A stretch of 61,815 nt of DNA from Patescibacteria group bacterium (GTDB lineage Bacteria; Patescibacteriota; Minisyncoccia; Phycocordibacterales; DATDWN01), in the NCBI GenBank assembly GCA_013816135.1, contig JACDEV010000003.1, forward strand, positions 1 through 61,815, read 5' to 3'. A program made the translations under genes and the position numbers. Of the stretch, positions 12,025-61,815 are shown piece after piece. Numbering within the stretch: position 1 is the first letter of the stretch; the number at the start of each line of letters is the position of its first letter. A model generated the notes under the pieces. It was not told the origin of the DNA, ran no database searches, and saw only the letters and a program-made list of their open reading frames with translations.

Positions 12025-12171
12025 AGAAAAAATATGTTTTTTCTTCTGGGAATCGGACGACGGAGCGGGCACACAGCGAGCTCGCTGGGTCGCGAGTCGG
12101 TGCCCAGACTAAAATGTTTTGACGAAAACATTTTAAGTCGAGGGAGATTTCCATCAACAGCTCAAAGAAAA
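12025..12171 (+). repeat. tRNA-linked GC-rich structured element, copy A
   Basis: In order: A/T hairpin; reverse complement of the tRNA-Thr T-loop/stem; GACGGAGCG; hairpin; CGCGAGTCGG; long hairpin; 22/26-nt copy of the tRNA 3' end plus trailer. Confidence 0.6.
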
Positions 12172-13744: not shown

Positions 13745-14635
13745 ATGGATGATACAAAGGAAAAGTTAAACATTGAGCTCCAAAAATTAGAAACGGAGAT
13801 GGTATCTCCGGATTTTTGGTTGAACAAAGATAAAGCCCAGGCTACTATCCGTCGAATCCAAGAATTAAAAAACGAGATTGAGGGTGTAGGAAAATATGAC
13901 GCTGGAGGTGCGGTTATGACTATTTTTTCGGGTGCAGGGGGAGACGACGCGGAGGATTTTTCTTCCATACTTTTGAAAATGTATATGAGATTTTGTGATA
14001 AGAACGGATTTGGAGTTTCGATGTTGCATAGCAATGATAACGATCATGGGGGATATAGGAATGTGACAATAGAAATTTCCGGCAAGAATGCATACGGCAC
14101 GCTGAAGAATGAATCCGGTGTTCATAGGTTGGTTCGTATATCACCATTTAATGCGAAGGCTTTACGCCACACATCTTTTTCAATGGTGGAAGTAATTCCA
14201 AAATTTGATAAAAGCGCTAAAGCTTCTGACTTAGAGATACCAGAAACTGAACTTCGAGTAGAACTTTCTCGCTCTTCGGGTCCCGGGGGACAAAATGTAA
14301 ATAAACGCGAAACAGCCGTGAGGATTGTGCATATTCCAACCAACCTTTCTGCTCAGAGTGATAATGAAAGGTCTCAAGGTCAAAACAAAGAGAAAGCAAT
14401 GCAGATCTTGCAAGGTAAGATTTACAAAGCGCTGGAAGAAGAGAGAATCTCCAAAGAAAAAGGAATGTATATTTCGAAAACCACACAGATTGAATGGGGG
14501 AATCAGATACGCTCTTATGTTATGCATCCTTACAAGATGGTAAAAGATCACAGAACTGGAGTAGAGACCAGTAATATAGATTCAGTTTTGGAAGGTGATA
14601 TCGATGAATTTATTGAAGGAGAAAAATCTTTATAA
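13745..14635 (+). CDS. prfB: peptide chain release factor 2, short N-terminal domain, no frameshift site
   Basis: SPF tripeptide (ISPFNA) and GGQ (SGPGGQNVNK). Only ~60 aa precede the SGAGGDDAEDF region. Confidence 0.85.
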   Translation: MDDTKEKLNIELQKLETEMVSPDFWLNKDKAQATIRRIQELKNEIEGVGKYDAGGAVMTIFSGAGGDDAEDFSSILLKMYMRFCDKNGFGVSMLHSNDNDHGGYRNVTIEISGKNAYGTLKNESGVHRLVRISPFNAKALRHTSFSMVEVIPKFDKSAKASDLEIPETELRVELSRSSGPGGQNVNKRETAVRIVHIPTNLSAQSDNERSQGQNKEKAMQILQGKIYKALEEERISKEKGMYISKTTQIEWGNQIRSYVMHPYKMVKDHRTGVETSNIDSVLEGDIDEFIEGEKSL

Positions 14636-18357: not shown

Positions 18358-18540
18358 CAAAATAGCGAAGCTATTTTCCTGTCCAGAAGCAAAGCGTAGC
18401 TTTGCGCTTGGACTCGAACGACGGAGCGATTCGTGTTTTAACAAAAACACGACGCGAGTCGGCGCCTAGACTTTTTCCGAGCGACGGCAAGGAAAAAAGT
18501 CGGAGGAGAGAGTGTACTCACGATCCAAGTCTGGCAGCCA
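18358..18540 (+). repeat. tRNA-linked GC-rich structured element, copy B (ends in a second tRNA-Gln 3' end with CCA)
   Basis: A/T hairpin; TGTCCAGA; hairpin; CTTGG+ACTCGAA (inverted T-loop); GACGGAGCG; hairpin; CGCGAGTCGG; hairpin with GAGCGACGGC loop; CCAAG TCTGGCA G CCA. Confidence 0.6.
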
Positions 18541-39401: not shown

Positions 39402-39743
39402 ATGAAGCCAACTATCGAACATAGGCCATGGGGGTCTTTTACGACTTTTACAAAAAATGAAACTTCGACAGTTAAGATTTTGAATATAAAAAAAGGTGAA
39501 GAATTAAGCCTTCAATATCATAATAATAGGGAAGAATTTTGGAAAGTATTAGACGGTACGCCTATGGTCACAATAGGTGATGAAGTTAAAAGTCTTAAGG
39601 AAGGAGAAGAGGTTACCGTTAAATCAAATACTAAACACCGGATTTCTGCTCCAAATGATGATGTAAGGATGTTGGAAATATCAACGGGAAATTTTGATGA
39701 AGAAGATATAGTGAGGGTAGAAGATAAATACAATCGTATATAA
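39402..39743 (+). CDS. cupin, mannose-6-phosphate isomerase type II C-terminal-domain-like
   Basis: HRPWGSF ... LSLQYHNNREEFW ... HRISAP pattern. Confidence 0.7.
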   Translation: MKPTIEHRPWGSFTTFTKNETSTVKILNIKKGEELSLQYHNNREEFWKVLDGTPMVTIGDEVKSLKEGEEVTVKSNTKHRISAPNDDVRMLEISTGNFDEEDIVRVEDKYNRI

Positions 39744-41605
39744 TGAAATATCAAAAAGCTCTTACAAAAAAAATCGCCAGTGTTCCATTGGGGGTTATTG
39801 TTTTGGATTCGATTGTATGTCTTTTGGTGAGAGTAGATAAAAAGATAAGTAGTTCACTTTATTTTTTAGCAAGTGGAAATGGAATTGATTTCACCAATGA
39901 CCCTACTAGGGTCAGTCTCGTTCATTCGTCAGGTAAAAAAGAAAAAATAAGTTTATGCGAGAATTTTTCTTTCTCACAAACTTCATCTGGGTTCCTCATG
40001 ACATACACAAGAAGAGGACTGACAAAATCAAAGAATGTTCTGGTTATCGCCAAATCAAAAGATCTTTTTGAATGGATAATTAAGTCGGAAATAGAAGCTA
40101 AGGATTCTACACACTCAACATTATTTTACAATAAAGAAAGAAATGAATTTGAACTTTATCGGGACGGACTTTTTGTTCGTAGTCAAACCTCAAAAACAGC
40201 CTCAGTTTGGAAAGAACAATTTACTTTGTTGTTTACCTCAAGAAATGGTCAGTTTGACTCTGAAAAACTTCTTATTATTGGATCTCTCTTAACTCGTGAT
40301 GGCTTAGTTTTGTTTTATGATGCAACTATTATGCACAAAGGAGCTGCATTACTTCAAGTAGGGTCTGTAGTGGTAAAAGATAATAAAGTAACGTGGCGAT
40401 CAAATTCACCTATATGGCAAGGCTTAGCTGAAACAAGTACAGGAAATCTTCCAATCAAGCCACTTGGAATTATTAATTTCAAAGGAAACTTTTTGGTCTA
40501 TTGGATTACAGCTAAAAATGAGATTATCGTCGCGACTATTCCTAAATTATTTAAAGAAGTTGAGGAAAGCCGATATCATCCAAAAATTCTAAAGAGGTTT
40601 ATTGGAAATCCTATCATTGAACCCACTCATAGAAGCTGGGAAGATGAAGGAACTTTTAATCCTGCTGTAGTTGAGGATGATGAAGGAACAATACATCTTT
40701 TATATAGAGCAATTGGTCGTGATGGAATATCAAGAGTCGGATATGCCAAGAGTAAGAATGGAACTTATTTTACAAAACGATCTGCTCACCCAGTTTTCGA
40801 GCCAAGTATGGGATTTGGATTACCAGATTCTGAAAAAGCAGAGGGTCCTATTGGCTATCACCCTGCTATGTATACTTCTGGCGGGGGTTGGGGTGGAGCT
40901 GAAGATCCAAGAGCTGTGCTAATAGAAGATAAGGTTTATATGACATATGTTGCATTTGAGGGTTGGAATTCTGTAAGGATTGCTTTGACCTCCATCAGTG
41001 TTGATGATTTCAAAAAAGGAAACTGGAATTGGAAAAAACCTATCCATCTTTCTTCACCGGGAAAAATAAATAAGAATTGGCTTTTATTTCCGGAAAAGAT
41101 AAAAGGAAAATTTGCTATTCTTCATAGCATCGCTCCAAAGGTTCAAATAGAATATGTTAAAAATATAGATAAGATGGAGAATTTTATCGAAAGTTCCAGG
41201 AAGGAAGGTCCACAACCTGGCCGAAATAATAAATGGGATGGATTGTTGCGCGGAGGTGGGCCTCCACCTATAAAAACTGAATTAGGGTGGCTATTGCTAT
41301 ACCATGCTCTAGATAATAAGGATTCTGGAAAATATAAACTAGGAGCTATGATTTTAGATGTAAAAGATCCCACACAGATTTTACATCGTTCAGCTCATCC
41401 TATTCTTTCACCAGATATGCATTATGAAAATAATGGGAAGCCAGGAGTTGTCTATGCTTCCGGAGCAATAATTAGAGGTGATGACCTGTATGTTTATTAT
41501 GGTGGGGCAGATAAGGTAGTTTGTGTTGCGACTACTCCGCTCAAAAAGTTTTTAAAATATATGATAGATAAGGACTCTGAAGTTTATTCTTTAAAAACAG
41601 CATAA
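39743..41605 (+). CDS. GH130-family (beta-mannoside phosphorylase-like) protein with an N-terminal domain of unknown function
   Basis: The C-terminal 330 aa have FNPAVVEDDEGTIHLLYRAIG, AEDPR, YYGGADK typical of GH130. Confidence 0.7.
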   Translation: MKYQKALTKKIASVPLGVIVLDSIVCLLVRVDKKISSSLYFLASGNGIDFTNDPTRVSLVHSSGKKEKISLCENFSFSQTSSGFLMTYTRRGLTKSKNVLVIAKSKDLFEWIIKSEIEAKDSTHSTLFYNKERNEFELYRDGLFVRSQTSKTASVWKEQFTLLFTSRNGQFDSEKLLIIGSLLTRDGLVLFYDATIMHKGAALLQVGSVVVKDNKVTWRSNSPIWQGLAETSTGNLPIKPLGIINFKGNFLVYWITAKNEIIVATIPKLFKEVEESRYHPKILKRFIGNPIIEPTHRSWEDEGTFNPAVVEDDEGTIHLLYRAIGRDGISRVGYAKSKNGTYFTKRSAHPVFEPSMGFGLPDSEKAEGPIGYHPAMYTSGGGWGGAEDPRAVLIEDKVYMTYVAFEGWNSVRIALTSISVDDFKKGNWNWKKPIHLSSPGKINKNWLLFPEKIKGKFAILHSIAPKVQIEYVKNIDKMENFIESSRKEGPQPGRNNKWDGLLRGGGPPPIKTELGWLLLYHALDNKDSGKYKLGAMILDVKDPTQILHRSAHPILSPDMHYENNGKPGVVYASGAIIRGDDLYVYYGGADKVVCVATTPLKKFLKYMIDKDSEVYSLKTA

Positions 41606-43506
41606 TGTTTGTAGTTAGACGTTCAAAAAATAATCCTATAATTTCTCCCACGAAAGAAAGTTCGTTTGACAGTTTTTCAGCATTCAATGGAAATCCAATC
41701 GAAGTAGGAAACAGTATTCAGTTACTTTATAGGGCCCAATCATTACCTCAAAGTTTTGAAAATCATCAATTTTCACTTTCAGTTATTGGAAAAGCTGGGA
41801 GTTCAGATGGTGTTCATTTTAAAGATAAAAAAGAATTTATTATTCCCGAAGAAGTCTGGGAAAGATTTGGTTTAGAGGATCCAAGAGTAACAAAAATTGA
41901 TGGAAAGTATTATATTTTTTATACTGCCTTATCCGTTTTTCCTTTCAGTGGCGACGGTATTAAGGTTGGAGTAGCTATTAGCAAGGATATGAAGGTTATA
42001 GAGGAAAAACATTTAGTTACTCCTTTCAATGCCAAAGCCATGACTTTATTTCCAGAAAAAATAAATGGAAAATATTTGGCTTTACTTTCCGTCAACACTG
42101 ATAAACCTCCTGCACAGATAGCTATAGCTGAATTTGATAAAATAGAAGAAATATGGGATCCAAAATATTGGAATAAGTGGTATAAAGAATTAGAAAAACA
42201 TATATTAAAGATTCCTAAGTTATCATCAGACCAAGTGGAAGTCGGAGCCACACCGATAAAAACTAAAGAGGGATGGTTAATGATTTATTCACATATAAAA
42301 AATTATTTTTCAAATGACAAAATCTTTGGCATTGAAGCGCTACTTCTAGATTCAAAAAATCCTCTGAATATTTTGGGAAAAACCCAAGGACCGATTCTTC
42401 TACCAGAAGAATCTTATGAAAAATATGGACAGGCCCCAAATATCGTTTTTCCAAGTGGAGCATTGGTAAAAAAAGATAAACTCATGATCTATTATGGTGC
42501 CACGGACACCACATGTGCTGTAGCTGAAGTATCTTTAGGTCCTTTACTGAAGACACTTAAGTCTCCAAATGAGGCTGGATTCAAAAGACTAACTGCTGGA
42601 CCAATGTTTGTACCTAGAAAAAAAATTGACTGGGAATCTCTAGCAGTATTTAATCCTGCAGCTATTTATCTAGGAGGTAAAACCCATATTTTGTATAGAG
42701 CAATGTCACAGGATAATACATCGGTAGTGGGGTATGTTGAGAGTGTTGATGGTTTGGTAGTGGATTATCAGTCCAATGAGCCTATTTATTCTCCACGAGA
42801 AACTTTTGAAGAAAAAAAAGTACCGGGAGGAAATTCAGGATGTGAAGATCCTCGTCTTACTAAGATAGGAGATGTAATTTATATGTGTTACACGGCATAT
42901 AATGGCATCACTCCTCCTGCTGTCGCTCTAACTTCAATTACGGAGAAGGATTTTCTTGCAAAAAGATGGAATTGGAAAAAACCAGTTCTAATTACTAAAG
43001 AAGGTGTGGATGACAAAGATGGATGTTTGCATCCTGAAAAAGTAAAAGGAAAATATTTTCTATACCATCGGGTAGAAAATATAATCTGTGGAGACTATGG
43101 ATCGACAGTAGAGTTTAAGGAAAAAAATAATTTTCGAAATATTCCAATCCTAAGACCAAGGGCTGGAATGTGGGATTCTAAAAAAGTTGGAATGTCGGTC
43201 CCGCCTATACGCACTGAAAAAGGATGGATTCTTCTTTATCATGGTGTATCAGATGATTCTGTATATCGTGTGGGGGCAATTCTTCTTGATTTGAAGGATC
43301 CAACAGTTGTTCTATCGCGAACAACTGGTTTTTTATTCGAGCCAGTTTTACCTTATGAAAAAAAAGGCCAAGTAAATAATGTAGTATTTCCTTGTGGAGC
43401 AACGGTAAGAAATGGCGTCGTCTATATGTACTATGGAGGGGGAGATAGTGTTGTAGATGTCGCCTCTATGCCACTTAAAGAGCTTTTAAGCGTCCTTTTG
43501 GACTGA
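41605..43506 (+). CDS. tandem double GH130-domain protein
   Basis: Two repeats, each with FN(G/P)..I....I.LLYRA, EDPR, Y.GA.D/YYGGGD. Confidence 0.75.
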   Translation: MFVVRRSKNNPIISPTKESSFDSFSAFNGNPIEVGNSIQLLYRAQSLPQSFENHQFSLSVIGKAGSSDGVHFKDKKEFIIPEEVWERFGLEDPRVTKIDGKYYIFYTALSVFPFSGDGIKVGVAISKDMKVIEEKHLVTPFNAKAMTLFPEKINGKYLALLSVNTDKPPAQIAIAEFDKIEEIWDPKYWNKWYKELEKHILKIPKLSSDQVEVGATPIKTKEGWLMIYSHIKNYFSNDKIFGIEALLLDSKNPLNILGKTQGPILLPEESYEKYGQAPNIVFPSGALVKKDKLMIYYGATDTTCAVAEVSLGPLLKTLKSPNEAGFKRLTAGPMFVPRKKIDWESLAVFNPAAIYLGGKTHILYRAMSQDNTSVVGYVESVDGLVVDYQSNEPIYSPRETFEEKKVPGGNSGCEDPRLTKIGDVIYMCYTAYNGITPPAVALTSITEKDFLAKRWNWKKPVLITKEGVDDKDGCLHPEKVKGKYFLYHRVENIICGDYGSTVEFKEKNNFRNIPILRPRAGMWDSKKVGMSVPPIRTEKGWILLYHGVSDDSVYRVGAILLDLKDPTVVLSRTTGFLFEPVLPYEKKGQVNNVVFPCGATVRNGVVYMYYGGGDSVVDVASMPLKELLSVLLD

Positions 43507-44282: not shown

Positions 44283-44295
44283 AATAAAATAAAAT

Positions 44296-44319
44296 AAAAC
44301 TACTCGAGAGAGTAGTTTT
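44296..44319. terminator. bidirectional terminator between convergent genes
   Basis: AAAACTACTC gaga GAGTAGTTTT with A/T runs on both sides. Confidence 0.7.
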
Positions 44320-45490
44320 ATTTTGTGTCTGTAATAGCTAATGAATAATGACAACCTAAGATCATTAAAGTTCCGATAACTATGAATATATATTGAAAAG
44401 GAATGAACTGGAGACTTAGTGTTGCAAGTAATGGTCCGACTATATATGACAATGGTCTTGCTAAACGAAAAAAACTGATAACATCTGTTTTTTCTTGATT
44501 AACCTGTTTGAAAAAATAGCTTTCTGTACTGATTTCAACAAAACTAGCTCCTATACGGGTTATAAATAGAAGCACAGCCCATATCCAGAAGATTTTAGCA
44601 GTGACAAAGCTTATGAATAGAGTTGGAAGTCCCATTACAATAAATCCTATAGTAAGAAACTCTTTTTCTCCATATTTATTATCAGCTAGATTTCCTACAG
44701 GAAGTTCAAATAAAACAAAAGGAAGGAGCATTATAGTAAACATAACGCCGACTTCTGCCCAAGAAAATCCAATTATTTTTATGAGATATAAAGGGACATA
44801 TATGACCATATAAGCATAGAATAACTGCAACAAAAACTGCGAAATGAAAATATTGTAGAGGTTTTTGTTTTTAAGGTATTCTACCAATGTTTCTTTTATT
44901 CTGATTGGGGTAGAGCTTGTAGCCCTGCTGAAATTTAATCTCTTTATTAGATTAAAAAGAGGAACCATTAATCCTGCTGACACAATATAGACATAATTAT
45001 ATGTATTTTGAAATACCAGTAATGCAATCACAGAAGGTGCAAGTACAATAGTTATATTTGTTAAGGTGAGATAAGTGGCTCTTATGCTTCCTGTAACTGA
45101 TTCAGTTGATACACTTTCTACAAATACATCCATATTAAACAGAATAAGTGATATACAAACCAGATGAATTATGAAGTAAAGACCTACAAGGAAAGGGATT
45201 GTGGTTACAGCTAGACCTACCGTTGTAAGAAATTCAAGTATAAGTACGAATAAAGAAAATTTATAACTTCCTAATTTATCCAATATCCTAGATGCATTCA
45301 ACAAGAGAGAAATATCCAATATTGATCCTATTATATACAAAGCAGAGACTTGGGTGTTGGTAAAGATGGTGTTTAAGAAAGACGAATTTATATATATGAC
45401 AAGTGCATAGTGGAAGGAAATAAATACATTTGAAAGAAACAAGGTATTTAGTAATTTGTTTTGTTTGAAAGGAAGGAGTAATTTATCCAT
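44318..45490 (-). CDS. polytopic transporter, MFS-like
   Basis: About 12 hydrophobic helices. The ATG at 45490 (MDKLLLPF) is preferred, because the GTG at 45565 lies inside repeat X. Confidence 0.55.
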   Translation of the reverse strand: MDKLLLPFKQNKLLNTLFLSNVFISFHYALVIYINSSFLNTIFTNTQVSALYIIGSILDISLLLNASRILDKLGSYKFSLFVLILEFLTTVGLAVTTIPFLVGLYFIIHLVCISLILFNMDVFVESVSTESVTGSIRATYLTLTNITIVLAPSVIALLVFQNTYNYVYIVSAGLMVPLFNLIKRLNFSRATSSTPIRIKETLVEYLKNKNLYNIFISQFLLQLFYAYMVIYVPLYLIKIIGFSWAEVGVMFTIMLLPFVLFELPVGNLADNKYGEKEFLTIGFIVMGLPTLFISFVTAKIFWIWAVLLFITRIGASFVEISTESYFFKQVNQEKTDVISFFRLARPLSYIVGPLLATLSLQFIPFQYIFIVIGTLMILGCHYSLAITDTK

Positions 45491-45548
45491 ATTTATATTG
45501 TAGCGCAGAAAAAACTTCTCGTCATGATGAGCATAAAGAATACTTTTG

Positions 45549-45625
45549 TTATTTAGAGTACGCACTTTTCTTGCTAGAAAAGATGCTCGAATCCTCGCGC
45601 CGTCGCGCTCTGAGCCTCTAAATAA
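45549..45625. repeat. GC-rich 63-nt core repeat (copy X) enclosed by a 10-bp flanking stem
   Basis: Core 45556-45618 is 62/63 identical to 52892-52954. TTATTTAGAG (45549-58) pairs with CTCTAAATAA (45616-25). Confidence 0.7.
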
Positions 45626-45637
45626 TAAAAATATTCT

Positions 45638-47536
45638 TTAAACTCCAAGTATCACTGGAATCACAATAGGCTTCTTTGCGGTTTTTTGGAACAAGAATCG
45701 TCCGACATTGTCTGCTAGATTGGATTTAACGAAATCAAAGTTGATTGGGTTCATTCCTCGAGTAGTATCTTCTACAGTCTTTTTGATTATCATTCGAGCA
45801 TTTGATAGAAGCTCCTGTGATTCACGTAGATAAACAAATCCTCTAGCAATGATATCAGGGGACTTCTTAAGTTTTCCGGTTTTGGCGTTGATACTGACGA
45901 TCACTACGAAAATACCGTCTTGAGCTAACATTTTTCTATCTCGTATAACCATTTCTTGAACATTTCCAATAGAAAACCCGTCAACTATCATAATGCTATC
46001 TGGAGCTTGTTCTTTTAGTCTTACGAAGGTCTGTCCTTCATTTTGGATTTCTAATATAGAGCCGTTATCAGGAACAATAATATTTTCTTTCGGCATTCCT
46101 ACTGCAGTTTCAGCTAGATCTTCGTGAACTCTAAGCATGTAGTGATTTCCGTGCATAGGCATAAAGAATTTTGGAGCTATCATTTTGTGCAACCATTCAA
46201 GTTCTCCACGGTTACCGTGACCTGTTGAGTGGATGTAAACATCAGATGTTCTGTAGTGGATTATTTTTGCACCTTGTCTAGCTAAGTTATCTTTTAGTTT
46301 CTGAACAGCTTTTTCGTTTCCAGGAATAATAGATGAAGAGAGGAGCACTGTATCTCTTGGAGTTATCTTGAAATATTTGTGGGTCTTATTGGACATTCGC
46401 ATCAATGCAGCGAATTCATCTCCTTGAGCTCCAGTAGCCAAAACAATGATTCTGTCTGGAGGGTAATTTTCCATATCAGCAGTAGTAATAATAGTTTCCG
46501 GCTTTATTTTCAGCATTCCCATATTGAGAACAATCTCGATATTTGTTTTCATGCTTCGTCCTTCAACTACTACTTTTTTTCCATACTTTTCAGCAATCAT
46601 AACTATTTTCATTACACGTTCAAGCTGGGATGCGAAAGTTCCTATGACCAAACGGCCTTTAGTGTTTTTGATGATGTTATCCAAGTTTTCGTGCACCAAT
46701 CTTTCAGGTGTTGAAAACCCTGGGTTATCAACATTAGTTGAGTCCATCATAAGGAGAAGAACTTTTTCGTTTTTGAATCTTCCGAATTCTTTAAACTCAG
46801 CGTCTGTTGGCACTCCGTCGTTATGGTCTAGTTTGATATCACCAGGAGTAACAATGGCTCCGTAGGGAGTGTCAATTATAATACCCATTGAATCTGGAAT
46901 AGTATGAGTTACAGCAAAAAATCTAACTTTCAGTTTACCGAAACTTATAATGTCTTCCTTCTCAACTATCTTCATATCTAAAGCAGGTAAATGAGGAAAT
47001 TCTTCCTGACGCTTCTTTATCATTATTGAAGTAAGAGCCCGAGTATAAAGAGGGGGATTGCCGATACGATCCATGATGTATGGTATTCCTCCGATATGGT
47101 CTAAGTGACCGTGAGTAATGATTACTCCTCGAATCTTATCTTTTCTATCCTCTAAGTATTTTGTGTTAGGTAAAATATAGTCTACTCCTGGAGTGTCATC
47201 GTCCTTAAATTGAAATCCCATATCGATAACAATAATGTCATCCTTGTATTCAACAATAGTCATATTCTTTCCAACTTCTTCTACTCCTCCAAGGGGAATT
47301 ATACGGATGCTATCTCCTGCTGGTGGAATGATATCGTCAGTTTTTTTTGTCATTCTCATTGGTGGCATGCTTCTCTGAGAGAAAGATCTTTTTGAAAAAC
47401 CTCCTCTACCTCCACGTCCTTGTGCCGGAGCTGTGTGTAGAGATGGTTTTGTTTCTGTAGGTACGCTAGTAGAAAGGGCGTTTTCAAGCGCACTATCGAA
47501 CTTATCTCCACTGTTATTGTCTTTTGTATTATCCAT
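45638..47536 (-). CDS. rnj: ribonuclease J with an N-terminal RGG-like extension
   Basis: Metallo-beta-lactamase HGHLDH, beta-CASP and C-terminal domains. N-terminal GRGGRGGF low-complexity region. Confidence 0.9.
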   Translation of the reverse strand: MDNTKDNNSGDKFDSALENALSTSVPTETKPSLHTAPAQGRGGRGGFSKRSFSQRSMPPMRMTKKTDDIIPPAGDSIRIIPLGGVEEVGKNMTIVEYKDDIIVIDMGFQFKDDDTPGVDYILPNTKYLEDRKDKIRGVIITHGHLDHIGGIPYIMDRIGNPPLYTRALTSIMIKKRQEEFPHLPALDMKIVEKEDIISFGKLKVRFFAVTHTIPDSMGIIIDTPYGAIVTPGDIKLDHNDGVPTDAEFKEFGRFKNEKVLLLMMDSTNVDNPGFSTPERLVHENLDNIIKNTKGRLVIGTFASQLERVMKIVMIAEKYGKKVVVEGRSMKTNIEIVLNMGMLKIKPETIITTADMENYPPDRIIVLATGAQGDEFAALMRMSNKTHKYFKITPRDTVLLSSSIIPGNEKAVQKLKDNLARQGAKIIHYRTSDVYIHSTGHGNRGELEWLHKMIAPKFFMPMHGNHYMLRVHEDLAETAVGMPKENIIVPDNGSILEIQNEGQTFVRLKEQAPDSIMIVDGFSIGNVQEMVIRDRKMLAQDGIFVVIVSINAKTGKLKKSPDIIARGFVYLRESQELLSNARMIIKKTVEDTTRGMNPINFDFVKSNLADNVGRFLFQKTAKKPIVIPVILGV

Positions 47537-49316: not shown

Positions 49317-49331
49317 CGGGAAATATATATA

Positions 49332-49371
49332 CGAATATGCGAATGGAACGAATGATACGAATGTAGCGAAT
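49332..49371. repeat. five phased CGAAT repeats (8-9 bp period)
   Basis: CGAAT at 49332, 49340, 49349, 49358, 49367. Confidence 0.7.
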
Positions 49372-49392
49372 AATACAATCCAATAACTTTCT

Positions 49393-49432
49393 ATTCGTAG
49401 CTATTCGGAGATTCGAATAATTCGTATATTCG
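49393..49432. repeat. five phased ATTCG repeats (inverted orientation of the left array)
   Basis: ATTCG at 49393, 49403, 49411, 49420, 49428. Confidence 0.7.
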
Positions 49433-49441
49433 TATGTTTAT

Positions 49442-52289: not shown

Positions 52290-52865
52290 ATGAATCAAAG
52301 CTTTTTTCAAAGAAATATGAAGTGGATCGTGGTCGTTGGTGTTATTTTGCTAGTTCTAGTGTGGGGAGTGTCAAAAAAGAATTCATTTGTAACTCAAAAC
52401 GAGCAGATAAATGTACAGTGGGCACAAGTTGAAAACCAATATCAAAGACGTTTTGATTTGATCCCTAATATAGTTGAGTCAGTAAAGGGTGTAGCAAAAC
52501 AAGAAACAGCTGTTTTCGGTGCAATAGCAGAAGCTAGAACAAGATACTCAGGTGCTGTAACTCCAGACCAGAAAGCTCAAGCTGCCTCACAAATGGAATC
52601 AGCTCTTGGTAGACTACTCGTTATTTCTGAAAACTATCCAGTACTACAATCTTCTCAAGCCTATAGAGACCTAATCACAGAGTTAGAGGGTACAGAAAAC
52701 CGAATCTCAGTTGAGAGAATGAAATACAACCAAGAAGTTAAGACTCTAAACACTAGTGTCAAAGTTTTCCCTTCATCACTTGTTGCTAGTTTGTTTGGTG
52801 TAAAAGAAAGAGCTTATTTTGAAGTTCCGAAGGAGGCACAAGTTGTTCCGTCTGTGAAGTTCTAA
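52290..52865 (+). CDS. lemA: LemA family protein
   Basis: N-terminal TM helix. VQWAQVENQYQRRFDLIPN and NYPVLQSSQAYRDL are typical LemA blocks. Confidence 0.85.
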   Translation: MNQSFFQRNMKWIVVVGVILLVLVWGVSKKNSFVTQNEQINVQWAQVENQYQRRFDLIPNIVESVKGVAKQETAVFGAIAEARTRYSGAVTPDQKAQAASQMESALGRLLVISENYPVLQSSQAYRDLITELEGTENRISVERMKYNQEVKTLNTSVKVFPSSLVASLFGVKERAYFEVPKEAQVVPSVKF

Positions 52866-52879
52866 AAATTGCTCTTCCT

Positions 52880-52966
52880 CATAATTTTTTGGAGTACGCA
52901 CTTTTCTTGCTAGAAAAGATGCTCGAATCCTCGCGCCGTCGCGCTCTGGGCCTCCAAAAAATTATG
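52880..52966. repeat. GC-rich 63-nt core repeat (copy Y) enclosed by a 15-bp flanking stem
   Basis: Core 52892-52954. CATAATTTTTTGGAG (52880-94) pairs with CTCCAAAAAATTATG (52952-66). Confidence 0.7.
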
Positions 52967-52971
52967 ACTCA

Positions 52972-53889
52972 ATGCAATTTTCCCTAAATACAATGCAAAA
53001 ACTACTAAAATATTTTGCAATTCTGTCATTTCTTCTACCCATTTCACTTTTTGCTTTTGTCGTACCTGCAAAACCAACTGGATTTGTTCAGGATTATGCA
53101 AATATACTTTCTCCAGAGCAGATAAATCAGCTCGAGACGAAACTTGAAGCTTACGAGAAAAATACTACAAATGAAATTGCTGTTGTGACGATTCAGTCCC
53201 TTGATGGTGATGCTATTGAAAATGTTGCACAGGATATTTTTACGAAGTGGGGAATCGGTAAAAAAGATAAGAATAACGGAGTTTTACTTCTAATTTCTCT
53301 TTCTGATAGAAAAACTAGGATCCAAACGGGTTACGGTGTTGAGGGACAGCTTACAGACATAGGAACATCCTATATTCAGAGAGAAATTATTACTCCAGCG
53401 TTTAGAAATGGTGATTATTATTCGGGTATAAATGGAGCGGTAGATAAGATGATAGAAGCTTTAGGTGGAAATCAAATAGTTCCATTAGATTACGCTGTTT
53501 CTCAAAGAACCTCCAGTTTTCCTTGGAATTTTATTTTAATTTTTATTATCTTTGGTGTTCAAATCCTTACTGCAGTGCTTGCTCCATCTAAGTCTTGGTG
53601 GGCTGGTGGAGTTATCGGTGGAGTTTTTGGAGGAATAATTTGGCTTACAAATATTGTTTCTGGAATATATGCAATATTTGCATTTATTGTTCTAGTCATT
53701 CTTGGATTGATTTTTGATTATTTTGTTTCTAAGGCTTACACACAAAAAAAGACAACAGGATCATTTCCTCCTTGGTTTTTCTGGGGAGGTGGAGGTGGAG
53801 GATTCGGCGGGGGTAGAAGTGGAGGAGGTGGTTTCGGAGGATTTGGTGGAGGTTCATCAGGTGGTGGCGGATCTTCGGGAGGGTGGTAA
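52972..53889 (+). CDS. TPM-domain (YgcG-like) membrane protein with a Gly-rich tail
   Basis: VQDYANILSPEQ ... EIAVVTIQSL ... NNGVLLLISLSDRKTRIQTGYGVEGQLTD. Follows lemA, the usual pairing. Confidence 0.8.
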   Translation: MQFSLNTMQKLLKYFAILSFLLPISLFAFVVPAKPTGFVQDYANILSPEQINQLETKLEAYEKNTTNEIAVVTIQSLDGDAIENVAQDIFTKWGIGKKDKNNGVLLLISLSDRKTRIQTGYGVEGQLTDIGTSYIQREIITPAFRNGDYYSGINGAVDKMIEALGGNQIVPLDYAVSQRTSSFPWNFILIFIIFGVQILTAVLAPSKSWWAGGVIGGVFGGIIWLTNIVSGIYAIFAFIVLVILGLIFDYFVSKAYTQKKTTGSFPPWFFWGGGGGGFGGGRSGGGGFGGFGGGSSGGGGSSGGW

Positions 53890-54706: not shown

Positions 54707-54722
54707 TTCTATAATTTTAATT

Positions 54723-54860
54723 GGAGAGTTCGCATAGCGGTCTGGTGTTGAAATGCGATGAGCATTTCAAAGACGGAGCATGGCGATGCGAGTCGGGGTC
54801 GAGGAAATTTTTTCCAAAAAATTATCCGTGACCGAGCTTGGAAAGCGGGTGCTATAATGG
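54723..54860 (+). pseudogene. disrupted copy of tRNA-Ser(GGA) carrying structured element copy C
   Basis: 54723-54747 matches the 5' 25 nt of the intact tRNA (1 mismatch). An 88-nt insert (54748-54835) carries GACGGAGC...GCGAGTCGG. Then comes the anticodon arm CGAGCTTGGAAAGCGGGT. No T arm or 3' acceptor strand. Confidence 0.6.
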
Positions 54861-54956: not shown

Positions 54957-55127
54957 CAAACAAATTGTTTGCAATTTGTTCGTGAGAGTAAGTAAGGTCA
55001 TGTTATGACCTTACGTGGAGATTCGAAAGACGGAGCGGGTACTAGTCGAGCACGACTGGTCGCGAGTCCGGGTAGGGAAAATTTTCGAGCGACGGCCATA
55101 AAATTATTCCTGACCGAATTTCTCCGC
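54957..55127 (+). repeat. tRNA-linked GC-rich structured element, copy D
   Basis: A/T hairpin; GAGAGT; hairpin; GGAG+ATTCGAA (inverted T-loop of tRNA-Ser); GACGGAGCG; hairpin; CGCGAGTCCG; hairpin with CGAGCGACGGCC loop; CGAATTTCTCC GC. Confidence 0.6.
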
Positions 55128-55819: not shown

Positions 55820-56812
55820 ATGAATAAAAAACTAGCCGTAGCCATAACAGCTCTTCTTGTGTTAGCTGTGATTTTTTATAAGCAATATAAACCTATTAAC
55901 CAGTCTAACCTTCTTAGTTCCGTAGAATACTCCCATATAAAAAATGAATTGTTAGATGTGGTAGTAATTAAAAATCCTACAGAAGCATTATCCTCGTTAA
56001 AGATAAAAATGGATAATCCTTTGGTATCATCCAGATGTCATTCACTGACACATGATATAGGGCACGTAGCGTATGAAAAATATAAAGATTTTGATATAGC
56101 AATGAAATATCAAGATGACATATGTGGTGGAGGATATCTACACGGAATTATTGAAAGAGTATTCAAGGATTCGTCCGATATAAACAAAGAAATGAATACA
56201 ATTTGTAAAAGGTATACTCGGGAGGATGATTTAGATAAATGTTATCACGGAGTTGGACATGGCTTCATGTATTATACAAATAATGACTTGCCAAAATCAT
56301 TGAGTATGTGCAGTGAATACAGAAGTAATCAAACAAAAATATCATGTTCGGAAGGAGTTTTTATGGAAAATTTTGGTACGGATACCGTAGACCATCCTTC
56401 AAATTTTCTTGATTCTAATAATCCAGCATATCCTTGTATTCAGCAAAACATTTTTTATAAAGGCAGTTGTTACTTTTATGCACCGATATATTATCTAAGT
56501 CTTCATGATGATAATTACCAAGCTGGATTTGCATGGTGCCAGACTCTAGAAAGTTCATTTAAAATGCGGTGTACGAGTGGAATGGGAAGTCGAGTAATGA
56601 AAAAATATATTACCCAAAAGGATATAGCTGAAAAGATTTGTTTACTTAAAAATAAATTTGAGACCAGTGCCTGCATTGATGGGCTTGTTAGTTATTATTT
56701 ACTTCAAAATAACTCTTTAAATTTAGCTCGTGAAATGTGTAATGATTTCAATGATGAAGATAAAGTTTCCTGCCTGAATTCAGTAACAAAACGAGAAAAT
56801 TTGTTTAATTAA
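55820..56812 (+). CDS. hypothetical Cys/His-rich exported protein
   Basis: N-terminal TM helix. Repeated C...H.(V|I)GH modules (CHSLTHDIGH, CYHGVGHG). Confidence 0.45.
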   Translation: MNKKLAVAITALLVLAVIFYKQYKPINQSNLLSSVEYSHIKNELLDVVVIKNPTEALSSLKIKMDNPLVSSRCHSLTHDIGHVAYEKYKDFDIAMKYQDDICGGGYLHGIIERVFKDSSDINKEMNTICKRYTREDDLDKCYHGVGHGFMYYTNNDLPKSLSMCSEYRSNQTKISCSEGVFMENFGTDTVDHPSNFLDSNNPAYPCIQQNIFYKGSCYFYAPIYYLSLHDDNYQAGFAWCQTLESSFKMRCTSGMGSRVMKKYITQKDIAEKICLLKNKFETSACIDGLVSYYLLQNNSLNLAREMCNDFNDEDKVSCLNSVTKRENLFN

Positions 56813-56839
56813 AAAAACCTCCAATTGGAGGTTTTTTTA
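56811..56839. terminator. bidirectional terminator between convergent genes
   Basis: AAAAAAACCTCC aatt GGAGGTTTTTTT. Confidence 0.75.
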
Positions 56840-59812: not shown

Positions 59813-59902
59813 GGAGGGTTGGCAGAGTGGTCTAATGCGCCGCACTCGAAACGCGGTTGGGGGTTTACCTCCTCACAGGTTCAAATCCTGTACCCTCCGC
59901 CA
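59813..59902 (+). tRNA. tRNA-Ser (CGA), CCA encoded
   Basis: Acceptor GGAGGGT/ACCCTCC, anticodon loop CTCGAAA, long variable arm, T arm ACAGG-TTCAAAT-CCTGT. Confidence 0.9.
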
Positions 59903-60020
59903 AAATTGAAAATCAGAATTGGAAGCCGAAACGGGGTCGCGCCGAAGGCGCGACACAAACGCATTCCCCCCAAAAAATCCTGAATCTGAAAGGGTTCGCC
60001 ACGCAGAGCGTGGCTCCTCG
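59873..60020 (-). pseudogene. remnant of a serine-recombinase C-terminal tail, antisense to and overlapping tRNA-Ser(CGA)
   Basis: The minus-strand frame reads EPRSAWRTLSDSGFFGGN AFVSRLRRDPVSASNSDFQFWRRVQDLNL*. This parallels the C-terminus of the intact recombinase (EPRSAWRTLSDSGFFGGN SEQTALRADHIFASEPDFVFWRYVLD...). Confidence 0.55.
59963..60016. repeat. left arm of the 54-bp perfect inverted repeat bracketing the recombinase gene
   Basis: ATTCCCCCCAAAAAATCCTGAATCTGAAAGGGTTCGCCACGCAGAGCGTGGCTC is the exact reverse complement of 61430-61483. Confidence 0.95.
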
Positions 60021-60037
60021 TTAGCCAATGCAACAAT

Positions 60038-61606
60038 ATGAATAATCACACCAGAAAATTTTTCATCTATACTCGCAAATCTACCGATACAGAAGATCGG
60101 CAAGTTAGAAGCATTTCGGATCAACTGGCCGAGTTAAAAGAGTTAGTGGTTAAAGAACAAATTGAGGTTGTTGATATTTTCGTGGAAAAGCAAACTGCTA
60201 AAGCTCCGGGTCGGCCAGTATTCAATGAAATGCTTCTCCGTATCGAAGCAAATGAGGCGAGTGGGATTTTAGCGTGGCATCCTGACCGCCTAGCTCGTAA
60301 TTCTGTTGATGGTGGAAAGATAATATATTTGCTTGATACGGGAAAAATTGCCGAGCTAAAATTCCCAACTTTCTGGTGTGATACTACGCCACAAGGTAAG
60401 TTCATGCTTTCCATTGCTTTCTCTCAATCCAAATACTATATCGATAACTTATCGGAGAATATCAAGCGTGGACACAGAAACAAAGTGAAAGACGGTATAT
60501 GGCCTCAAATGTCGCCTCTGGGCTATGTAAATGTCAAAGGTGCTGGAATAGTACCCGATGAAAATATCGCTCCGTTAATCAAGAAAACATTTGAGGCCTA
60601 CGCAACTGGAAATTTCACTTTGCGACAACTGCACGATAAGTTTAACGCTCTTGGATTGAGTAGAAAGAATGGAAAGGTGCTTTCCGTTTCAAACTATCAA
60701 CAAATTTTGAAAAATCCGATATTCACGGGGTTAATGAGATATAGTGGTGAAATATACGAAGGAAAGCACAAACCGATTATCACAAAGAAACTTTTTGATT
60801 CTGTTCAAGAGGTGATGAGTCGAAAATCTAAACCGCATAGCAAAGGACTGAAACCATTTTTGTATAGAGGATTTTTCCGTTGTGGAGAATGTGGATGTTT
60901 TATCACTACCGAAACACAGAAAGGTCATAACTATTTGCGATGTACTAAACGGAAAAATCCTTGTTTGCAAAAATATGTCCGTGAAGAAATCATCACTTCT
61001 CAAATTGCAGAAAGTATCAAAAAAGTTTCTTTGCCACTCGATTGGACAAATTGGATGATTGCCGAAAATGAAAAAGATCGGCAATCAGAAACCCAATCGA
61101 GTGAGATTTTTTCTCAAAAAACAAAAGATGAAATTTCTCTTTTAGATTCAAAAGTTGAAAAGTTGATGAACTTATATTTAGAAAATGTTTTGTCTTTGGA
61201 AGAATATCGTGATTCTAAAAATAAGTTAGTGAATCAAAAACAACTTTTAAAAGAGAAATTATCGGCTTTTGAGAAAAAATCTCATAATCGGTTCGAACTT
61301 ACCGATAAATTCCTAAAAGCCAATGTATCCAATATGGAATTGGCTAACGAGAAAACAAATGAAGAAATTCTTCATTTGTTTAAAAAAGTCGGTTCGAACT
61401 TTCAAATCTTGAATCGAACCGTCTTTTTTGAGCCACGCTCTGCGTGGCGAACCCTTTCAGATTCAGGATTTTTTGGGGGGAATTCAGAACAGACGGCACT
61501 TCGTGCCGACCATATTTTTGCTTCCGAACCCGATTTCGTTTTTTGGCGGTATGTTCTGGACAAAGTTCGAACCTTTTTTGAAATGAATCCTGACGAAGAA
61601 ATCTGA
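60038..61606 (+). CDS. large serine recombinase (integrase/invertase type)
   Basis: Resolvase catalytic domain (IYTRKSTDTEDRQ, HPDRLARN), recombinase domain, zinc ribbon (CGECGC...LRCTKRKNPC), coiled coil. Adjacent to a tRNA gene. Confidence 0.9.
   Translation: MNNHTRKFFIYTRKSTDTEDRQVRSISDQLAELKELVVKEQIEVVDIFVEKQTAKAPGRPVFNEMLLRIEANEASGILAWHPDRLARNSVDGGKIIYLLDTGKIAELKFPTFWCDTTPQGKFMLSIAFSQSKYYIDNLSENIKRGHRNKVKDGIWPQMSPLGYVNVKGAGIVPDENIAPLIKKTFEAYATGNFTLRQLHDKFNALGLSRKNGKVLSVSNYQQILKNPIFTGLMRYSGEIYEGKHKPIITKKLFDSVQEVMSRKSKPHSKGLKPFLYRGFFRCGECGCFITTETQKGHNYLRCTKRKNPCLQKYVREEIITSQIAESIKKVSLPLDWTNWMIAENEKDRQSETQSSEIFSQKTKDEISLLDSKVEKLMNLYLENVLSLEEYRDSKNKLVNQKQLLKEKLSAFEKKSHNRFELTDKFLKANVSNMELANEKTNEEILHLFKKVGSNFQILNRTVFFEPRSAWRTLSDSGFFGGNSEQTALRADHIFASEPDFVFWRYVLDKVRTFFEMNPDEEI
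61430..61483. repeat. right arm of the 54-bp perfect inverted repeat (inside the recombinase 3' coding region)
   Basis: GAGCCACGCTCTGCGTGGCGAACCCTTTCAGATTCAGGATTTTTTGGGGGGAAT. Confidence 0.95.
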
Positions 61607-61674
61607 AACAATGCGGACGAAGTTTTGCGGAAACAATTTTCTGGGGAAAGGATTCGCAAAACTTCGGCTGATTT

Positions 61675-61718
61675 CCCGCCCGCAGGAGGGGTCTGGGGAG
61701 GAATGCGGGCGGGTTTTT
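61675..61718 (+). terminator. GC-rich hairpin + T-run downstream of the recombinase
   Basis: CCCGCCCGCA (61675-84) / TGCGGGCGGG (61704-13) followed by TTTTT. Confidence 0.6.
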
Positions 61719-61815
61719 GAACCTTTCCTTTTTCGTTTCCGAATTTCGTGCCAGTTGAAAACTGGCGCACCACCTAGTTTATAAATTTACCTTATTTTGA
61801 ATAATACTTATCAAA

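Follow-up and report, generated by a model that had tools for sequence, protein, structure and literature searches.

A probable REP/MITE-like, non-autonomous palindromic repeat family with an invariant branched centre at gene junctions of Patescibacteria

The REP and BIME sequences of Enterobacteria and Pseudomonas, which are mobilised by RAYT, a Y1/HUH transposase, are among the best-fitting described counterparts of the element reported here, together with bacterial MITEs (transposable elements of miniature size with inverted repeats) and the folded recombination sites attC and CTX-phage attP. Genomes of the candidate phyla radiation (CPR)/Patescibacteria, at about 1 Mb and tightly packed, are generally thought to be repeat-poor. 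In a 61,815-nt stretch of DNA from a Patescibacteria group bacterium (assembly GCA_013816135.1, contig JACDEV010000003.1, positions 1 to 61,815), called the window below, two near-identical cores, each framed by inverted arms and termed copies X and Y, were followed up. On balance, X and Y probably belong to a REP/MITE-like, non-autonomous, structure-constrained palindromic repeat family that is dispersed in Paceibacteria-type CPR bacteria. The repeat unit of about 110-130 nt consists of A/T-rich inverted arms of 25-33 nt, always closed by ...GAG/CTC..., round a 57-nt core, and sits between co-directional genes, with its outer end either adjoining the stop codon of the upstream gene or providing it.

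With REP/BIME, the X family shares its placement as extragenic palindromes just after stop codons and between co-transcribed genes, in either orientation and without coding capacity; in both, structure outweighs sequence, REP being thought to move as folded single strands and then to stabilise mRNA or terminate, and a Y1_Tnp gene is present on a related contig (L009). A REP, however, is a simple 20-40-nt G+C-rich hairpin with a GTAG head and is found in hundreds of copies, whereas the X unit measures 110-130 nt and combines A/T-rich arms with a branched, invariant G+C-rich cap, and the 62-kb window yielded no RAYT. Bacterial MITEs (Correia/NEMIS, ERIC, RUP, BOX and rickettsial palindromic elements) resemble the X family in being short and non-autonomous, with terminal inverted repeats and long hairpins, in their insertion polymorphism between relatives and presumably in their co-transcription with neighbours; the TA...TA ends, seen in five of eight members, are like those of Correia and IS630-type MITEs. 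In MITEs the termini are conserved because the transposase binds there, whereas in the X family the termini drift round an invariant centre, and no parent insertion sequence with matching ends was found. The likeness to attC and CTX-phage attP lies in imperfect inverted repeats of 60-140 nt from the preceding gene's stop codon with a variable or branched apex, attC and attP being recognised by shape as folded single strands whose arms mimic the target. Unlike attC, the X family lacks an IntI or Xer signature and a cassette array, inspection of its arm ends showed no R''/R' boxes (RYYYAAC/GTTRRRY), and its neighbours are core genes in conserved order. Compared with the PATE elements derived from IS200/IS605, which have subterminal hairpins but no terminal inverted repeats and a Y1 transposase as partner, X has two internal hairpins along with long inverted arms, and no Y1 gene was found in the window. 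Dispersed palindromic repeats as such are known; what is distinct here is the invariant branched centre with drifting ends and stop-codon-anchored arms, in hosts with ultra-small genomes and with relatives whose closing helix copies an adjacent tRNA.

The window contains exactly two occurrences of a 54-nt string (TACGC...CTCTG), both plus-strand, namely 45559-45612 and 52895-52948; no such match was obtained in 100 shuffles. The 62/63 identity between 45556-45618 and 52892-52954 and the common strand orientation, both reported in an earlier sequence-only reading, were confirmed, the sole difference being A/G at 45613/52949 within the GAG...CTC block. The 57-nt cores match at 56 of 57 positions, including an A/T-rich hairpin (P2) that is variable between genomes. 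A repeat finder extended the pair to 78 nt at 94% identity (45549-45626 versus 52885-52962), whereas the complete arms of X and Y are only about 50-70% alike. The sequence flanking the cores had been taken as unrelated between the two copies and as self-complementary over ten nucleotides. It was found that TTATTTAGAG/CTCTAAATAA and TTTTTTGGAG/CTCCAAAAAA match at 8 of 10 positions, both differences being compensated on the partner arm, and that the self-complementarity is real but extends over 25-30 nt. In a window with 36% G+C, the arm pairs of X (45529-45558/45616-45645, 30 nt, 87% complementary) and Y (52865-52894/52952-52981, 30 nt, 83% complementary) are the two longest inverted repeats.

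In copy X, the left arm recovered by the inverted-repeat search (45529-45558) has its well-paired part at 45534-45558 (TAAAGAATACTTTTGTTATTTAGAG), with 25 bp made up of 23 Watson-Crick pairs, one G.T and one C.A. The 57-nt core (TACGC...CTGAGC, 45559-45615), which together with the flanking GAG/CTC forms the 63-nt block and of which the minus strand is probably the folded one, contains P2 at 45562-45586 (GCACTTTTCT-tgct-AGAAAAGATGC), whose sequence varies across genomes while its pairing is kept. The G+C-rich half that follows (45587-45615) is identical, except for A/G at 45613, in all five X-type copies from three assemblies that are described below, and contains the T-loop-like TCGAATCC at 45587-45594 and the P3 hairpin GCGC-CGTC-GCGC at 45597-45608. 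The minus-strand strings quoted earlier for this copy are present in the sequence. Its right arm (45616-45645) has at its outer end the TAA stop codon of rnj (45640-45638, minus strand), and copy X thus lies, as first placed, between the rnj stop and the next minus-strand gene, encoding an MFS protein, the start of which was put at about 45490 from orthologue comparison. Copy Y has its left arm at 52865-52894, its core at 52895-52951 and its right arm, from the inverted-repeat search, at 52952-52981; the first base of the left arm is the last base of the LemA stop codon (stop at 52865). Downstream of Y follows a plus-strand gene for a TPM-domain protein, with ATG 52993 as likely start from comparison with the N-terminus of the orthologue in the related contig L010. 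The ATG at 52964 in the right arm of Y was rejected as a start, as an in-frame stop occurs seven codons on; the listed open reading frame (ORF) starts at 52972. X and Y have the same chromosomal orientation but opposite orientations relative to their own flanking genes. A Logan assembly contig identical to the window breaks within copy Y, as is typical of repeats. Leaving itself aside, the window's GroEL has its nearest relatives at 83% identity, under the labels Candidatus Zambryskibacteria, Paceibacterota or Patescibacteria, which places the window in a Paceibacteria/Zambryskibacteria-like CPR genome.

Further copies were sought with a 22-mer in one genome per species and with a degenerate pattern in metagenomes. 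The 22-mer returned two true copies on two short contigs (L006 and L007) of one metagenome-assembled genome, plus four chance matches in high-GC genomes, and the degenerate pattern one extra copy (L008) from Hainich groundwater, bringing the X-type copies to five in three assemblies. The assembly holding L006 and L007 (GenBank CAZQKP01) is labelled Candidatus Saccharibacteria, which we doubt because the SmpB protein of L007 is closest (76-85%) to Zambryskibacteria/Parcubacteria proteins; the two short contigs may be mis-binned. Common to all five copies are GAGTACGC and a 33-nt block, CTCGAATCCTCGCGCCGTCGCGCTCTG(R)GCCTC (that is, CTCGAATCC...GCCTC), invariant except for the A/G at 45613, whereas P2, between the invariant blocks, and the arms differ among copies with compensation. 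The arms of L008, which lies at a NusB/NUDIX-rnc junction, pair perfectly over 33 bp. The possibility that only two copies exist and stem from a segmental duplication does not agree with three more copies in other assemblies, nor with the sequence beyond the arms, which is unrelated between X and Y.

Sister elements were also found, with the same ...GAG/CTC... closure and similar arm sequence round other cores. One, in L018, carries a different 55-nt core at a NUDIX-rnc junction; another, in L128, has a 55-nt core of the L018 type after smpB. L009 holds two larger copies (2463-2665 and 14080-14255) with a 108-129-nt core and arms ...CCTTTTCAGAG/CTCTGAAAAGG...; one shares the rnj-MFS junction with X, and the other follows ybeY. 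Genes for a Y1 (IS200/IS605-type) transposase and for a fragment of a reverse transcriptase lie on the same contig (89-847, 6888-7511). The L018 and L128 elements have both arms and core in common despite different loci and different genomes, which implies that the whole unit can move. Alignment of arms from different sites gave a mean score of 1.23, compared with -2.97 (sd 0.62) for shuffled arms (reached in 0 of 500 shuffles), and the likeness persisted with the inner 10 nt excluded; the most divergent arms are those of copy X.

Every copy folds, on either strand, into one three-way junction formed by the arm helix (P1), the A/T-rich hairpin P2 and the 4-bp G+C hairpin P3, with conserved joining strands. 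Both strands fold better than shuffled sequence (z -3.2 to -4.1). In the five-sequence alignment, double compensatory changes are seen in 10 of 29 pairs, and in 8 of the 12 inner-arm pairs; 93% of alignment cells are paired, a share that falls to about 54% on shifting the partner strand one or two columns, and the observed covariation was reached in only 0-1 of 500 shuffles. A covariance model built from the five X-type copies (R1) recovered from the window only X (99.7 bits) and Y (99.6 bits), the next match scoring 18 bits.

Gene order round X and Y is kept in the relatives L010/L011/L012 and L013/L014, and presence/absence polymorphism at orthologous sites was revealed by comparing four junctions. 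At rnj-MFS, the spacer is 147 nt with the element in the window and 27-28 nt without a hairpin in L010 and L013; at LemA-TPM, it is 127 nt with the element compared with 7-8 nt in L010 and L013. The NusB/NUDIX-rnc spacer measures about 150 nt with the X-type copy in L008 and 1 nt in L017, whose rnc is 90% identical. At the junction of smpB with the tmRNA gene (ssrA), L007 holds an X-type copy and L128 the sister type, while L126 has a small terminator-like hairpin only and L124 none. Since the spacers of syntenic relatives are only 1-28 nt long and contain no long hairpin, arms and core together are the insertion, rather than the core being a newcomer in an older terminator. A survey of related DNA, about 230 kb in all, detected eight GAG|CTC hairpins; all eight contain a core and none is empty, which likewise implies that the arms arrive together with it. 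The small hairpin in the smpB-tmRNA spacer of L126 (10447-10490; ACATATC-GGAG-GTATATG, then a T-run), a relative without the element, has a stem resembling mid-arm sequence of the family (CATATCC...GGATATG), and could be a deletion remnant.

In X, L008, L018, L006 and one of the L009 copies (L009b), the outer arm begins exactly at the upstream gene's TAA or TAG stop codon; in Y it begins one base later. A TA target, with the element giving the third base of the stop codon, is possible and would fit the TA...TA outer ends of the five units without proving such a target. Orientation of the core relative to the flanking genes is 4:4, and its relation to GC skew, judged on short contigs, is inconsistent. 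The start of arms at stop codons and the tRNA-linked elements described below had suggested that arms arise as inverted duplications of the local flank; for the intercistronic copies this was dropped, as arms at different sites are homologous and ancestral spacers, at 1-8 nt, offer too little sequence to supply them.

Searches for known families were negative within their scope. Rfam 15, at the gathering threshold and at E up to 10, returned for X, Y and two tRNA-linked regions only tRNAs and otherwise chance-level snoRNA and miRNA matches, apart from the weak SAM-I match of X given below; no description of the family was found in Rfam or in the literature searched, and no known REP/MITE family matched in the libraries searched. 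Neither ARAGORN nor RF00005 detected a tRNA cloverleaf at X or Y, the window's seven tRNAs all lying elsewhere; the only tRNA-like content of X is a string like a tRNA 3' half, TCGAATCC-TCG-CGCCGTC. No intrinsic terminator-like sites were found at X or Y, neither arm being followed by a T-run, and promoter-like sites near X and Y were no commoner than in shuffled sequence, with none at Y.

For a REP/MITE-like family, we envisage that copying of the unit would proceed from a folded single strand, with the enzyme provided in trans, so that the hairpin structure, and not the arm sequence, would be under selection. The near-identity of the X and Y cores, set against the divergence of their arms, implies that the cores were copied or homogenised recently and independently of the arms. 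Short-patch gene conversion anchored in the invariant core would be the simplest way of keeping cores identical within one genome; the alternative, core replacement at an existing element, would explain why two junctions hold different subtypes at the same position in different genomes. After insertion, the unit would be transcribed within the operon, where the long hairpin probably serves, like that of REP elements, as an intercistronic processing or stability signal. Several observations weigh against this interpretation. Only two copies are present within 62 kb, and the most conserved part is the centre and not the termini, the reverse of a classical MITE. A target-site duplication is inseparable from arm pairing, TA being self-complementary. 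The subtype differences at two junctions could reflect old resident elements that change by conversion and not repeated insertion, and the very strong conservation of the 33-nt block across genera could equally fit a cellular function. In the window, neither tblastn with the L009 proteins nor the Pfam-scanned ORFs gave a transposase, a Y1/HUH enzyme or a reverse transcriptase, and its sole recombinase, a large serine recombinase at 60038-61606, is tied to the element by nothing. As a structured repeat that has opened gene junctions of 1-28 nt time and again in such compact genomes, the X family can usefully mark genome dynamics, and it explains some breaks in metagenome assemblies, such as the Logan contig end in Y; in relatives, contigs with smpB often reach only about 1 kb.

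The strongest rival, possible but rather unlikely, holds that X and Y are a cellular structured RNA transcribed from the X-minus strand, either a small RNA gene or a cis-acting module, with paralogues kept by selection rather than selfish copies; its three-way junction, with GA/GA flanking the G+C hairpin and a T-loop-antisense segment (GGAUUCGAG), would bind protein or tRNA. The conservation is indeed RNA-like, combining invariant junction sequence with covarying helices. Among the non-Watson-Crick arm pairs of the eight hairpin-type members, nine G.U pairs fall on the X-minus-like strand and two on the plus-like strand, a bias that is weak (binomial, about p = 0.03) and dependent on the orientation assigned to three sister elements; the minus-like strand is also more stable by 0.5-5 kcal/mol in all five members compared. 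These values give a weak hint that the tRNA-sense strand, so called from the relatives described in the next paragraph, is under structural selection, as RNA or as single-stranded DNA. All five tRNA-linked relatives run in their tRNA's own direction, and the element upstream of tRNA-Ser is kept beside tRNA-Ser across genera. A transcribed RNA is, however, difficult to reconcile with the 4:4 orientation, by which the favoured strand is antisense to the operon in half of the copies, with promoter-like sites at X and Y that do not exceed the shuffled level, and with the lack of any Rfam family match. The 33-bp perfect arms of L008, free of G.U, point to an origin at the DNA level, and the absence of the element from the same junction in related genomes marks it as dispensable.

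A kinship of X with tRNA-linked elements of the window, the minus strand of X corresponding to their plus strand, had been proposed and was borne out by a second covariance model (R2), built from the window's four tRNA-linked elements and the L018 core and run on the whole window with filters off. Besides its training sequences, the two best matches were both on the minus strand, Y at 52888-52958 (21.7 bits, E 9e-4) and X at 45552-45622 (19 bits, E 4e-3), with 12.4 bits for the match that followed; as R2 contains no X-type sequence, their recovery upholds the kinship. Beyond the window, R2 scored the X-type copies of L008 (25.4 bits, E 3e-4) and L006 (17.6 bits) and the L128 element (42.9 bits), and it found a new member upstream of tRNA-Ser(GGA) in L013 (13809-13889, 45.3 bits). 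The layout common to both groups, read on the tRNA-sense strand, is closing helix, GA - G+C hairpin - GA, A/T hairpin, YGYR, closing helix. The groups thus have homologous cores, with X reversed, but differ in that the tRNA-linked elements have a tRNA-derived closing helix and follow the tRNA's direction, whereas the X type has A/T-rich arms and lies between protein-coding genes.

The four training elements of the window are all on the plus strand. Downstream of tRNA-Thr, the element at 12044-12162 contains an exact inverted copy of the T-loop and T-stem at 12047-12058. Downstream of tRNA-Gln, the element at 18407-18538, formerly designated copy B, has its inverted T-arm copy at 18407-18419 and ends in a 15-nt direct copy of the tRNA 3' end (18524-18538) followed by CCA, the tRNA-Gln gene itself having no encoded CCA. 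Two related elements accompany tRNA-Ser(GGA), one upstream (54757-54837), set within an incomplete second copy of the tRNA's 5' half, and one downstream (55014-55127), with an inverted T-arm copy at 55017-55027. The three downstream elements hence each begin with an exact 11-13-nt inverted copy of their own tRNA's T-loop and T-stem, which was obtained in 0 of 300 shuffles, and the closing helix of the tRNA-linked members is built from T-arm and acceptor sequence of the adjacent tRNA.

The arrangement upstream of tRNA-Ser(GGA) (54715-54860) comprises this incomplete copy, made up of acceptor and D arm and split by the 80-nt element, then a degenerate anticodon arm, a TATAAT box and the real tRNA-Ser(GGA); it recurs at 13775-13918 of L013, a relative whose GroEL is 82% identical to that of the window. 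On the plus strand, 45587-45606 of the X core looks like the final 20 nt of a tRNA, with TCGAAT as T-loop, CCTCG as T-stem and CGCCGTC as acceptor strand before a G, and the corresponding tRNA 3' end would be ...TTCGAATCCTCGCGCCGTCG. None of the window's seven tRNAs has this 3' end; the string could have been copied from a tRNA gene in another part of the genome.

A tentative extension of this kinship, which we regard as unlikely, would unite X-type, L018-type and tRNA-linked elements in one class of gene-less integrative modules that arose from the tRNA T-arm and spread as folded single strands. The closing helix would be remade out of the local target, or be under selection to imitate it, with the tRNA from T-loop to 3' end at tRNA sites and a stop-codon-anchored A/T helix between cistrons, and the invariant G+C-rich cap might act as recognition handle for a host or helper enzyme. 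Alternatively, the cap may be an RNA that pairs with tRNA T-loops. The tie to T-arm-copying elements offers a concrete route to how small non-coding modules move or act in unculturable organisms and, if the module interpretation is true, it would represent a new mobility mode in the most reduced bacterial genomes.

Very unlikely, in our estimate, is a folded single-strand recombination site, in which the arms mimic the duplex target, as in attC and CTX-phage attP, and a recombinase inserts a tiny circle; the arms of the tRNA-linked members would then mimic the tRNA gene from the T-arm to the 3' end. The exact inverted T-arm copies and the 15-nt 3'-end copy in the tRNA-Gln element conform with this, as do arms conserved in hairpin structure and not in sequence, elements that begin at the preceding gene's stop codon like attC, and the large serine recombinase beside tRNA-Ser(CGA). 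For serine recombinases, the use of folded single strands is not known. Further, no integron integrase, cassette array or R''/R' attC consensus was found, the integrase not having been searched for genome-wide, and the neighbours are conserved housekeeping genes in fixed synteny. Nor did searches of viral contigs and phages reveal a circular or phage-borne copy: blastn against phage and plasmid collections gave no match, the X core had 0 matches in viral contigs, and of 105 viral-contig matches to the tRNA-linked motif none was convincing by R2, the best one examined (L037) lying within apparent coding sequence.

The sequence-only reading had offered two explanations of the self-complementary flanks, a covarying closing helix or insertion at the apex of A/T hairpins already in place, for example terminators. 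If the latter were true, only the 57-63-nt core would be mobile, homing to such apices, and we consider this highly improbable. Cores of X and Y that are 98% identical within far less similar arms would be expected from it, and so would different cores at the same position of two junctions (L008 versus L018; L007 versus L128), the small hairpin at the smpB site of L126 and the existence in the window of perfect palindromic terminators that start at stop codons, for example at 56810-56839. The orthologous regions, however, show no uninterrupted hairpins at the X and Y junctions of L010 and L013, the empty spacers (1, 7-8 and 27-28 nt) being hairpin-free, and core-less hairpins of the family are lacking in the 230 kb surveyed. 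Natural terminators are laid out differently (A-run, G+C stem, T-run). The covarying closing helix is the better-fitting alternative, as evident from inner-arm compensation, from arms that are homologous across sites and from L018-type arms that travel between loci with their core. Chance similarity, segmental duplication or a variant SAM-I riboswitch can be regarded as refuted, given the exact 54-mer pair, the copies in other genomes and the unrelated sequence beyond the arms, with only a weak SAM-I (RF00162) match of the X minus strand (20.6 bits, E 0.058, against a gathering threshold of 44.4), none at Y, and an MFS transporter gene downstream.

Other features of the window were recorded alongside the X family. 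The serine recombinase at 60038-61606 (Resolvase, Recombinase and Zn ribbon domains) lies directly downstream of tRNA-Ser(CGA), with G+C-rich hairpins nearby at 59912-59976 and 61654-61725, and the region 59813-61725 is probably the edge of an integrated element running off the window. At 2-49, 44291-44324, 56810-56839 and 61353-61381 the sequence is perfectly palindromic over 29-48 bp, with 0-4-nt loops and a layout of A-run, G+C stem and T-run, and these sites look like bidirectional terminators; the one at 56810 begins with the stop codon of the preceding ORF. Arrays of inverted CGAAT/ATTCG boxes, which are outside the X family and look like operator sites of some regulator, occur in the divergent SBP/SecG region and upstream of groES (49323-49441 in the window) and are conserved in the relative L009 (6470-6566 and 8457-8549). 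Several of the direct-repeat families detected in the window originate from adjacent, tandem-duplicate GH130 genes (620 and 633 aa) at 39743-43506.

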